DNA from: a virus
Taxonomy: Duplodnaviria; Heunggongvirae; Uroviricota; Caudoviricetes
Direction: 5' to 3' (one strand)
Virus record (IMG/VR): IMGVR_UViG_2582580752_000004
Length of the DNA: 45,585 bases
The position numbers were made by a program, and so were the translations under genes. Shown here piece by piece: positions 9,757 to 12,061 of this stretch. Under the pieces are notes generated by a model, which worked only from the letters and a program-made list of their open reading frames with translations, made no database searches and was not told the DNA's origin. How positions within the stretch are numbered: position 1 is the first letter of the stretch; each line of letters begins with the position of its first letter.

Positions 9757-9901
9757 GGATATATAGTGATGAGGGTTATGTTTTCTGTGTTTATAATTAA
9801 CATGTTTATTTTTTGATGGTCATGTATTGTGGAAGGTAGATAAAATGTTGCCTGGTGAATTGAAAATATTGATAATCAATCTTCATCATTAAATAAAAGG
9901 A
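9757..9901 (+). promoter_or_regulatory. Expected late promoter (pR')/qut region downstream of Q
   Basis: Position only; AT-rich 145-bp gap between Q and the first downstream gene. No motif confirmed. Confidence 0.25.
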
Positions 9902-10726
9902 GTGCTTATGTGGATTGTGTTAGTACTGTCACTGTCAACTCTCAGTTGGCATAAGGTAGTGGCTTTTTCATTGTTGACGGTGTCTGTTGTCCTGGCTGTG
10001 CTTAATGATATTATTGATTGGTCGGTGTTATTTTTTGTTGCTACAATCGTTTTTTTTATTATTTTGAAGTTCAACTGGAAATATAACGCCTGGGCTAAAT
10101 CTATATATGAAGTTGGCATAGTTTTATCAGCCATAGCATTATCTTTCCATCTATGGCCAGGGTTTCACAATCCTGTAGTGCTAAATTCTGTTACTGTTGG
10201 CCCTCAAAGTACTCCCTATACAATGTATTTTAATTTTGATAAAGCGCTGGTGCCATTTTTGTTAGTCCTGTGTACATCTTCTTTGTTTAAAAAAGAAGTA
10301 AAATCAGAAGTGTCTTTGTGGAAGTGGGGGGCTCTGTCGCTCTCTGTTCCTCTTATCCTGTTTTTGGCTGTTTTTTTTGGTGGATTAAAGCCAGAGATTC
10401 ATTTTCCTGAGTGGTTGCCAGAGTTTATATTGGCTAATTTGTTTTTTGTGTCTCTGGCAGAGGAATCATTATTTAGAGGGTATATTCAATCACGGCTATC
10501 AGAAGTAACGTCTCCATTGGTTGCATTAATTGTGGCGGCTTTGTTGTTTGGTTTTTATCACTATTCAGGTGGTGCTTTACTTGTATTATTTGCCACGTTA
10601 TCTGGTGTTGTGTATGGATTGTCATGGATGTGGAGTGGGCGTTTGTGGGTTGCCACCCTTTTCCATTTTGGTTTGAATCTGTGTCACTTGTTATTCTTTA
10701 CCTATCCATTTTTAAAACATAATTGA
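9902..10726 (+). CDS. CPBP-family (CAAX/Abi-domain) intramembrane metalloprotease
   Basis: Multi-pass hydrophobic 274-aa protein with the three CPBP motifs EESLFR, FGFYH and HFGLN; AAAAGGAG SD; AT-rich. Confidence 0.75.
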   Translation: MLMWIVLVLSLSTLSWHKVVAFSLLTVSVVLAVLNDIIDWSVLFFVATIVFFIILKFNWKYNAWAKSIYEVGIVLSAIALSFHLWPGFHNPVVLNSVTVGPQSTPYTMYFNFDKALVPFLLVLCTSSLFKKEVKSEVSLWKWGALSLSVPLILFLAVFFGGLKPEIHFPEWLPEFILANLFFVSLAEESLFRGYIQSRLSEVTSPLVALIVAALLFGFYHYSGGALLVLFATLSGVVYGLSWMWSGRLWVATLFHFGLNLCHLLFFTYPFLKHN

Positions 10727-10866
10727 TTTTTTCTATGGTTTTAAATTTATAAGACTGAAAAATAGCAGGACGTGACATTTGCATGAAAAATATGCACGGC
10801 AAAGCATTTACGTACGTAAAAAATCAGGTATGCTGTTAAGAGTGGTTATTTCGCCGCATAGCTTGA

Positions 10867-10890
10867 CCCCGCCTCTGAGCGGGTTTTTTG
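10867..10890 (+). terminator. Rho-independent terminator after the CPBP gene
   Basis: CCCGC-CTCTGA-GCGGG hairpin followed by TTTTTT. Confidence 0.55.
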
Positions 10891-11012
10891 TGCCCGCAAA
10901 GTAGCGCAGTGCGTTAAATGTGCTGGTAGTTATTAATACAGGTCTTTCAGCTTGCTGGCTTTTTCGGCAAGAGTTATTGGTGTGTCACGTTAACCGGAAA
11001 GGGTAAAAAGAC

Positions 11013-11210
11013 ATGCTGAAACAGCAGGATATGACAGAAACCGCCAGAGTTGTGTTTGATGAATTAAGCGTCACCGAACCGGCGACAGTCGGGGAGATTG
11101 CGCAGAATACTTACCTTTCACGCGAACGCTGCCAGTTAATACTGACCCAGCTTGTTATGGCGGGTCTGGCAGACTATCAGTGCGGTTGTTACAGACGCCT
11201 TCAGTCCTGA
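11013..11210 (+). CDS. Small (65 aa) winged-helix-like protein
   Basis: ORF with an AAAGGG SD-like stretch upstream of the ATG; helix-rich wHTH-like composition. Confidence 0.4.
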   Translation: MLKQQDMTETARVVFDELSVTEPATVGEIAQNTYLSRERCQLILTQLVMAGLADYQCGCYRRLQS

Positions 11211-11347
11211 AGGCTTTTTTATTTGTGGTAAATGGGCGGCTGGTGGGGGTTAGCGGCACCTGTCAGTCCTTTGCTTATGTGTTGATGATAATTTACCTTT
11301 TGGGGCTATAATTGAGCTAACCAATTGCTAATGAAAGTAAAATTATA

Positions 11348-12061
11348 ATGGCTGTTGTCTGTTCAGTTATCATGGTTTGCTCCCCAATTAATATTTTTCT
11401 TGAAAAGGATACGTTGTCACTTAAGCCAGGCTCAGTCGTTCTGGCCACCAAATGCATCAGGGAGCTTTTCCTTATGCATTATGGCAAAGTTAAAATTGTC
11501 GATATAAGCCATTCCATAGTAAGTCAATATCTGGAAATTCAGCATAAGCTGACAAGAACTCATCTGACTGACGTTCCGCTTTATCTGTCACTGGAACCCA
11601 ACAACCCTGCGTTGGCTGCGGCTTTAATTACCAGCCAGGGATTTTCCGGAGAGGTCACGGATATGTTTCTTATGATGGCCTGCCTGTCTCTGTTTGAAAC
11701 AGATGAACGGATGTCATTGTTTTTAAGTGGATGTTTATCCAGCATAAGTGCCAAAGTCAGGGCGATAATTCAGACAGATATATCAGCAAGCTGGACGCTT
11801 GGTGCGATTGCTCTACAGTTGCATATGAGTGAGAGTTTGTTAAAGACAAAACTGAAAAATGAAGGGGGCATGTTCAGTCGCTTGTTGCTGGAAGAGCGGA
11901 TGCGTGTTGCTGTAAATATGTTATGTTCCCGGTATGGATATGGACAGGCTGTAGCAGAAAAATGTGGTTATTCAAGCCGGTCCTACTTTATTTCTGTATT
12001 TCACCGCTATTATGGCTTCCCGCCAGACAGATATGTATCCAGGCAAGGGCTTGATTATTGA
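11348..12061 (+). CDS. AraC/XylS-family transcriptional regulator
   Basis: C-terminal AraC-type HTH (WTLGAIALQLHMSESLLKTKL...YGYGQAVAEKCGYSSRSYFISVFHRYYGFPP); AT-rich. Confidence 0.65.
   Translation: MAVVCSVIMVCSPINIFLEKDTLSLKPGSVVLATKCIRELFLMHYGKVKIVDISHSIVSQYLEIQHKLTRTHLTDVPLYLSLEPNNPALAAALITSQGFSGEVTDMFLMMACLSLFETDERMSLFLSGCLSSISAKVRAIIQTDISASWTLGAIALQLHMSESLLKTKLKNEGGMFSRLLLEERMRVAVNMLCSRYGYGQAVAEKCGYSSRSYFISVFHRYYGFPPDRYVSRQGLDY

Follow-up and report, generated by a model that had tools for sequence, protein, structure and literature searches.

Two accessory cassettes on either side of an inferred late promoter in the Q-to-tRNA interval of an Sp4-like Escherichia coli prophage

Which genes occupy the interval between the antiterminator gene Q and the tRNA cluster in virus record IMGVR_UViG_2582580752_000004 (Duplodnaviria; Heunggongvirae; Uroviricota; Caudoviricetes), and do they form a single unit under the control of Q? 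The question concerns positions 9757–12061 of a stretch of 45,585 nucleotides, the whole of which is referred to here as the window. The original prediction, drawn from the letters alone, had taken the three genes found here, encoding a CPBP-family intramembrane protease, a 65-amino-acid protein resembling a winged helix-turn-helix (HTH) and an AraC-family regulator, as an undescribed Q-controlled module in the high-expression site that Shiga toxin (Stx) phages use for stx. Every gene was indeed found where it had been placed, with the CPBP gene first after Q and the AraC-family gene (PF00165/PF12833) leading into three tRNAs at 12090–12341. The CPBP gene is AT-rich, as had been noted (37.9% GC versus an average of 52.4% for the window), and the description of the locus as holding AT-rich accessory (moron) genes in the neighbourhood of Q and the late promoter stands. 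The arrangement of these genes is a different matter: the interval is very probably the Q-to-tRNA region of an Sp4/CP-933N-like prophage from attaching-effacing Escherichia coli, in which two independent accessory cassettes are split by the late promoter. By sequence, the trio is the already catalogued set of cargo genes Z1787–Z1789 (ECs1085–1087) of effector-carrying prophages in pathogenic E. coli. The features on which the following paragraphs draw, all on the plus strand, are:

9376/9385–9756 (+): Q antiterminator gene of the Q21/933W family (PF06530), 123 amino acids counted from the ATG at 9385
9757–9907 (+): AT-rich spacer between Q and the CPBP gene, with three promoter-like hexamer pairs and an AAGGAG ribosome-binding site
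9908–10726 (+): gene of the CPBP (Rce1-like/Abi) intramembrane glutamic protease family, 272 amino acids (PF02517), orthologue of Z1787/ECs1085
10807–10834 (+): inferred late promoter pR', by homology to 933W pR'/qut and to the mapped Sp5 promoter
10868–10889 (+; stem 10868–10883): terminator-like, pR'-proximal GC hairpin with a T6 run, aligned to the 933W hairpin
11013–11210 (+): 65-amino-acid HTH open reading frame (ORF), the first ORF of the late leader, orthologue of Z1788/ECs1086 and labelled TrmB family in RefSeq
11197–11220 (+; hairpin 11197–11214): intrinsic terminator on the stop codon of the small ORF, a candidate tR' kept in all compared loci
11285–11312 (+): promoter-like site for psr, ATGATA-16-TATAAT (10/12 matches), at the left edge of the psr cassette
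11348–12061 (+): gene for a Psr-family, AraC/YdeO-like regulator of 237 amino acids, a PsrB-like allele (PF00165, PF12833)
12090–12341 (+): three phage tRNA genes, ileZ-type Met/Ile2(cat), argN Arg(tcg) and argO Arg(tct)
12354–12379 (+; hairpin 12354–12373): terminator 3' of the tRNA block, with an equivalent annotated in 933W
12439–13106 (+): genes for a TerB-family protein and a DUF3927 ORF, in the tRNA-to-esterase interval

The identity of the locus was straightforward to establish. The region 9300–12400 was recovered at a coverage of at least 80% in 533 of 5,426 complete E. coli genomes (megablast), and the serotyped strains among the matches listed (~98.5% identity) were of O121, O111, O145 and O39. 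Prophage Sp4 of strain Sakai has the same order, with ECs_1084 (Q), ECs_1085, ECs_1086 and ECs_1087 (AraC) followed by ileZ, argN and argO, and ECs_1085 is annotated there as a 'phage CAAX amino terminal protease family protein'. The quantitative reverse transcription PCR primers published for Z1787 (PMC2654852) match the window without mismatch at 9925–9945 and 10400–10419, and the CPBP gene is therefore Z1787. The genes are thus not undescribed, PsrA and Z1787 both having been the subject of publications. The value of the locus as a discovery is small, as its genes are annotated in every reference enterohaemorrhagic E. coli (EHEC) genome and experimental studies exist for two of the three. 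An Rfam scan of 9757–12061 returned no RNA family, the only RNA genes being the tRNAs just beyond the interval.

The arrangement turns on the position of the late promoter. The Q gene matches PF06530 (E 4.9e-52) and its product shares 79% identity with the Q proteins of 933W and VT2-Sakai. In the GenBank record of 933W, pR' (TTTACG...TATCAT), qut and a hairpin are annotated directly after Q; relative to that phage, the window holds ~1,086 nt (9721–10806, 36% GC) in place of 89 nt. The pR'-like element of the window lies beyond this segment, 81 nt past the CPBP stop codon and 1,050 nt past that of Q. It consists of a −35 hexamer TTTACG within the perfect palindrome TTTACGTACGTAAA (10807–10820), a 16-nt spacer and a −10 hexamer TATGCT (10829–10834), followed by the conserved TAAGAGTGGTTA and then the hairpin at 10868–10883, with a predicted start site at ~10841. 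The 14-bp palindrome TTTACGTACGTAAA occurs a single time in the window, at 10807, and positions 10807–10889 gave the sole match in the window to this region of 933W (3426–3507; 75% identity over 84 nt, E 2e-7). The pR' start of the Sakai Stx phages was mapped by differential RNA sequencing (dRNA-seq) to 258 nt upstream of the 3' end of tR' (Sy et al., 2020; PMC7547250). In Sp5 (NC_002695.2), the tR' T-run ends exactly 258 nt from a start placed 7 nt past the −10, and start and tR' end are both shifted by +142 from the published dRNA-seq/Term-seq coordinates; because of this spacing and common offset, the Sp5 homologue can be equated with the mapped promoter.

The same element accompanies the CPBP gene elsewhere. 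The order TTTACGTACGTAAA-N8-TATNNT-hairpin was found ~80–95 nt past the CPBP stop codon in five further loci (L009, L011, L013, L101 and L102; CPBP 59–84% identical), where the −10 varies at its middle positions only (TATACT, TATGAT, TATTGT, TATTCT), and CPBP is kept between Q and the promoter of Q down to 59% protein identity. An Stx2a phage with another Q subtype (~50% identity) has the dyad TGCGGTCCGCA at the equivalent place and shares the leader from window position 10834 on (88.7% over 452 nt). The dyad at the −35 position of 933W is TTTACGATCGTAAA, and in a locus with a DUF1133-type Q the promoter and hairpin are different again and the sequence merges with the common leader at 10879. 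The palindrome at −35 may be a binding element specific to the type of Q. With a pR' homologue at 10807–10834, downstream of CPBP, the protease gene would lie between Q and Q's own promoter and would not be a late gene here, contrary to its earlier description as late-promoter-proximal cargo.

The hairpin behind the CPBP gene had been read as that gene's own terminator. A terminator-like hairpin is present at 10868–10883, 142 nt past the CPBP stop codon; however, it lies downstream of the inferred pR' and has its homologue in the pR'-proximal hairpin of 933W (L015 3486–3508), for which reason a private CPBP terminator as its sole role was rejected. Termination at 10868–10889 is probably partial, since Sp5 transcripts run on to +258 (PMC7547250).

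An alternative would place the late promoter within the 151-nt Q–CPBP spacer (9757–9907, 28.5% GC). CPBP would then head the late genes, and the element at 10807 would serve as a further promoter or an operator. The spacer does contain three promoter-like hexamer pairs, at 9817–9889, pR' follows directly on Q in 933W and EH2201, and a promoter and terminator precede a distant CPBP gene in locus L099. Yet alignment of the window with 933W revealed no similarity to pR'/qut in the spacer, the sole match being at 10807–10889, the Q-associated palindrome is found only at 10807, and a hairpin scan of the spacer found no terminator-like hairpin. Moreover, among more distant Q–CPBP loci (Q proteins 75–93% identical) the spacer is not conserved, unlike the block 10801–10851. 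We consider a late promoter in the spacer highly unlikely, and retain pR' at 10807–10834.

The CPBP gene and psr also occur apart. CPBP was found in 570 genomes at one copy per genome (573 places), whereas psr occupied 1,318 places in 724 genomes and was found with three different Q types. Thus psr and the small ORF, without CPBP, follow a DUF1133-type Q in TW14359, and in phiSTEC1575-Stx2k they follow a 250-amino-acid antiterminator, with stx2k after the tRNAs. Conversely, CPBP occurs without psr in L009, L011, L013 and L101/L102. In the Stx2a phage EH2201, a DNA methylase gene replaces psr after the small ORF and homology breaks at window position 11284; breaks of homology with other phages fall at 10834 and 11284. 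Because CPBP and psr are distributed independently, with a pR' homologue between them and these breaks in homology, the trio is not one module. The view of CPBP, the small HTH protein and the AraC regulator as one undescribed Q-controlled module in the stx slot could draw on their common strand, on their shared position between Q and the tRNAs, on the 533 genomes carrying at least 80% of 9300–12400 and on the expectation that, on induction, psr would be transcribed by read-through of Q-modified polymerase. Set against this are the earlier descriptions of the genes, the pR' homologue between CPBP and the small ORF, the terminator-like hairpins and promoter-like sites that separate the genes, and the independent distribution of CPBP and psr. 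Expression under Q alone is also at odds with the literature, in which the Z1787 transcript and psrA deletion phenotypes were reported from uninduced cultures. The position of stx, considered next, bears on the same view, to which we attach hardly any credence.

In 933W, EH2201 and the Stx2k phage, stx lies between the tRNAs and the SASA/nanS-p (yjhS) esterase gene. The tRNA block of the window is 94% identical to the 933W tRNAs, the trio lies upstream of it, and the interval that would hold stx is occupied by TerB and DUF3927. Such genes and stx can share one phage: upstream of stx2k lie the small ORF and psr, and upstream of stx lies CPBP, the latter in L009/L010 (E. coli GCA_012267765.1). 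This locus comprises Q, CPBP (84% identity), pR', an StxS-like leader, stxA (315 amino acids)/stxB and holin, with CPBP directly upstream of the Shiga toxin operon. The trio lies outside the stx slot and breaks down into the leader ORF and two independent morons, one on each side of the late promoter and this ORF. In its general layout, the region begins with a promoter and dyad specific to Q and continues with a common leader, which contains the 65-amino-acid HTH ORF. Either psr or a DNA methylase gene fills the first cargo slot, ahead of the tRNAs; past these, the second slot is filled by stx or by TerB/DUF3927, and the esterase gene comes last. An STnc100 small RNA was detected just upstream of the esterase gene (13111–13283, +; Rfam 100.8 bits, E 6e-21).

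The second of the two morons belongs, on sequence identity, to the published Psr family. The AraC protein matched PF00165 (E 3e-13) and PF12833 (E 3e-9), both above cutoff, in a C-terminal double HTH, and its best curated family was YdeO over the full length (E 2.8e-29), with GadX next. YdeO is a known activator of gadE. With the Sp4 copy (PsrA) it shares 93.2% identity, and with a second O157 copy (TW14359 ECSP_RS10685) the AraC protein shares 97.5%. These two O157 copies share 90.7% identity with each other, which matches the published value of 90% for PsrA versus PsrB. ECs1087 has been named psrA (PMC13502914), and Z1789 on O-island 50 (OI-50) is PsrA according to reviews (PMC10877973, PMC8565820). 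The same reviews describe PsrA and PsrB as prophage-encoded regulators of the AraC-like type whose induction of GadE and YhiF leads to repression of type III secretion from the enterocyte effacement locus (LEE), PsrB and PatE as binding the hdeA and gadE promoters and raising acid resistance, and the psr genes as residing in prophages with effector genes and Pch regulators (PMC10877973, PMC8565820). In published work, the psrA deletion phenotype was seen without prophage induction. The promoter-like site at 11285–11312 is kept in all psr loci.

Between pR' and psr, the 65-amino-acid ORF had been called winged-HTH-like. It is a conserved, HTH-like ORF, and its substitutions fall mostly at third codon positions, a coding-type pattern. 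The match to TrmB (PF01978) is weak and below cutoff (E 0.003, 17.8 bits versus 25.6). The model (pLDDT 83) is all-helical, with four helices and no beta wing modelled, and its winged-helix resemblances (PcaR, AF1382, Z-alpha, PefI and IscR; TM 0.6–0.66, E ≥0.5) are non-significant. Homologues (n = 295) were found in Escherichia, Shigella, Salmonella, Klebsiella, Citrobacter and Buttiauxella, and the ORF is also present in Stx2a and Stx2k phages. It is intact here, whereas Sakai ECs_1086 (L003 28344–28583) is a 79-amino-acid product with an apparent frameshift, alike over the first 49 residues; an intact small ORF may be dispensable in Sakai. By analogy, lysogens would transcribe the leader with the small ORF, provided that pR' has the constitutive activity reported for Stx phages and that the first hairpin is as leaky as in Sp5.

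The first moron raises the question of what the protease does. The gene was listed as ORF 9902–10726, and its likely start is the ATG at 9908 with AAGGAG upstream, giving 272 amino acids in agreement with RefSeq. The domain PF02517 was matched over residues 171–260 at 70.6 bits (cutoff 22.4), and all three motifs are present as had been predicted: EExxxR (E185, E186, R190), FxxxH (F214, H218) and HxxxN (H253, N257). Five motif residues are invariant and N257 is at least 90% conserved among 30 homologues. An AlphaFold model (pLDDT 93.1) had as its only meaningful Protein Data Bank (PDB) matches in Foldseek SpdC (6u0o_A, probability 1.00, TM 0.49–0.53) and Rce1 (4cad, probability 0.75). Profile and structure searches, which had been proposed as a check, thus upheld the CPBP and AraC families and gave the CPBP a fold of the SpdC/Rce1 type. 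To our knowledge, SpdC lacks the catalytic residues, which the CPBP of the window keeps. We see about an even chance that the protein is a catalytically competent glutamic intramembrane endopeptidase acting on a bacterial envelope or exported protein, in which case its host-cell phenotype would be indirect.

That phenotype stems from a single study. Jandu et al. (2009) described the protease on O-island 50 as gene Z1787, the transcript of which was present in ordinary uninduced EHEC cultures and rose 2.7-fold with HEp-2 cells (PMC2654852). The Z1787 deletion mutant lost the block of interferon (IFN)-gamma-induced STAT-1 phosphorylation, with partial complementation (PMC2654852), and a 2012 paper from the same laboratory left Z1787 unmentioned and called the factor 'as yet unidentified' (PMC3256229). 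Owing to the partial complementation and this omission, a STAT-1 function of Z1787 is weakly supported (PMC2654852, PMC3256229). Literature searches by the locus tags ecs1085 and ecs1086 returned nothing and the tag z1787 led to the 2009 study; a search for CPBP in E. coli prophages gave an unrelated Staphylococcus aureus paper only, and one combining CAAX, O157 prophage and antiterminator gave nothing.

In its wider distribution, the CPBP family has both chromosomal and phage-borne members. Homologues at 45–55% identity are solitary chromosomal genes with unrelated neighbours, in Serratia, Photorhabdus, Xenorhabdus, Proteus, Enterobacter, Dickeya, Providencia and other genera, while in the phage-borne clade (55–100% identity) a Q gene adjoins in every case. 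A homologue of 287 amino acids (55% identity) in L099/L100 (Logan contigs, 2905–4864) follows a lambda-type Q (PF03589), and in L099 a promoter-like site and a terminator precede CPBP and a holin gene follows. The family is thus captured beside two unrelated Q families.

Abi/CPBP proteins confer bacteriocin self-immunity, and CPBP could accordingly be an immunity, exclusion or anti-phage factor like the Gram-positive Abi-type bacteriocin immunity proteins, and not a virulence-related protease. Its typical moron position, its recurrence beside Q of two unrelated families and its transcript in uninduced EHEC cultures (PMC2654852) would suit such a role. The original prediction had likewise suggested a search for a cognate peptide or toxin. 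No toxin, bacteriocin or peptide gene was found beside CPBP in the window or in 12 other loci (annotated neighbours from nine homologue look-ups), PADLOC gave no match for CPBP or the AraC protein (the other two proteins were marginal only, E >0.003), and a tblastn search of 50,697 phage records with CPBP gave no homologue, leaving no phage isolate as a model. Together with the solitary chromosomal orthologues and their unrelated neighbours, these results lead us to regard an immunity or defence role as possible though doubtful.

With the two cassettes arranged around pR', the locus could work as follows. Cassette 1 (~9721–10806, 36% GC) would wedge the CPBP gene between Q and Q's late promoter, so that CPBP would be transcribed on induction by read-through from the early pR–Q operon and in lysogeny from its own promoter in the AT-rich spacer. 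Next would come pR' with its Q-specific dyad, the proximal hairpin and the common leader encoding the 65-amino-acid HTH protein, ending at 11197–11220. Cassette 2 (~11285–12085, 41% GC) would carry the psr regulator with its own TATAAT promoter; judging from the literature on its orthologues, the regulator would activate gadE, yhiF and hdeA, giving more acid resistance and repression of LEE type III secretion. On induction, the leader, psr and the tRNAs would be transcribed by read-through of Q-modified polymerase.

By homology, ~80 nt would part the end of CPBP/Z1787 from pR', and ~620 nt would part it from psr. The expression of pR' or psrA could therefore be disturbed in mutants of Z1787 made by cassette replacement, and the STAT-1 phenotype deserves a re-test with a non-polar mutant, polar effects being something to exclude before the protease is credited with a role in virulence. 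A more far-reaching possibility is that CPBP and the short Q of the 933W family are functional partners, CPBP being a delayed-early gene in the envelope biology of phage or lysogen, with CPBP transcription across pR', or the 65-amino-acid HTH protein of a constitutively transcribed leader, modulating late and psr expression, and with the STAT-1 phenotype partly due to polarity on pR' or psrA. We think this unlikely.

Several points weigh against two independent cassettes split by pR'. The assignment of pR' in this prophage rests on homology and conservation, and with three promoter-like pairs in the Q–CPBP spacer a Q-responsive promoter there is conceivable. The arrangement in L099 implies that CPBP can be a late gene elsewhere. 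The STAT-1 effect is the sole functional report on CPBP, and a weakly supported one given the partial complementation and the omission in the 2012 paper. The functional content attributed to Psr is drawn from reviews, activation of gadE, yhiF and hdeA and repression of type III secretion being known for orthologues only and extended to the window protein by analogy.

Other features of the prophage were recorded alongside the interval. Upstream of DUF968, RusA and Q lies a hok/sok-type toxin–antitoxin locus (7190–7514, +), in which a sok RNA (Rfam, 107 bits) overlaps a 70-amino-acid Hok-like ORF (7302–7514). An IS3-family insertion sequence (15282–16495, +) with an ALIL frameshift pseudoknot (15563–15679, Rfam) and an IS110-family transposase insertion (16825–18069, −) both lie between the SASA/nanS-p-like esterase gene (13421–15256) and the lysis genes; with its late operon interrupted by two insertion sequences, the prophage may be defective. 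A PerC/Pch-family regulator is encoded after the lysis genes (21006–21320, +; PF06069, E 4e-44); Pch regulators are LEE activators reported to travel with psr genes. At the far end, an ORF cut off by the end of the window (44692–45585, −; PF04806, E 2e-143) contains five EspF-type proline-rich repeats and looks like a TccP/EspFu-type type III effector, which fits an Sp4-like effector-carrying prophage.

Among known systems, the closest is Sakai Sp4 (CP-933N/OI-50 of EDL933, Z1787–Z1789), which shares gene order and spacing and 98.1% nucleotide identity across 3,080 nt; its Q (ECs1084) and CPBP (ECs1085) are 99% and 99.6% identical to those of the window. TerB and DUF3927 are annotated after the tRNAs in this window, in TW14359 and in O121 RM8352, whereas none is annotated there in the Sakai record. 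The CPBP resembles Rce1 (4CAD) and S. aureus SpdC/LyrA (6U0O) in having a PF02517 domain and the three motifs as well as a multi-helix membrane fold, although sequence identity is merely 13–17%. The pR'–tR' leader of 933W/Sp5, which encodes the StxS small RNA (PMC7547250), has TTTACG-16-TATNNT, TAAGAGTGGTTA and the proximal hairpin in common with the window. In 933W/Sp5, however, the promoter overlaps the end of Q, whereas here it is parted from Q by the 1.09-kb CPBP cassette, and the leader of the window is without the StxS segment and carries the 65-amino-acid HTH ORF and another terminator. With the PsrA/PsrB/PatE regulators, the AraC protein shares the C-terminal AraC double HTH and a tRNA-side prophage location, as well as 91–97% identity to the two O157 copies. 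As in psr prophages, genes for a Pch regulator and an effector are present in the window as well.

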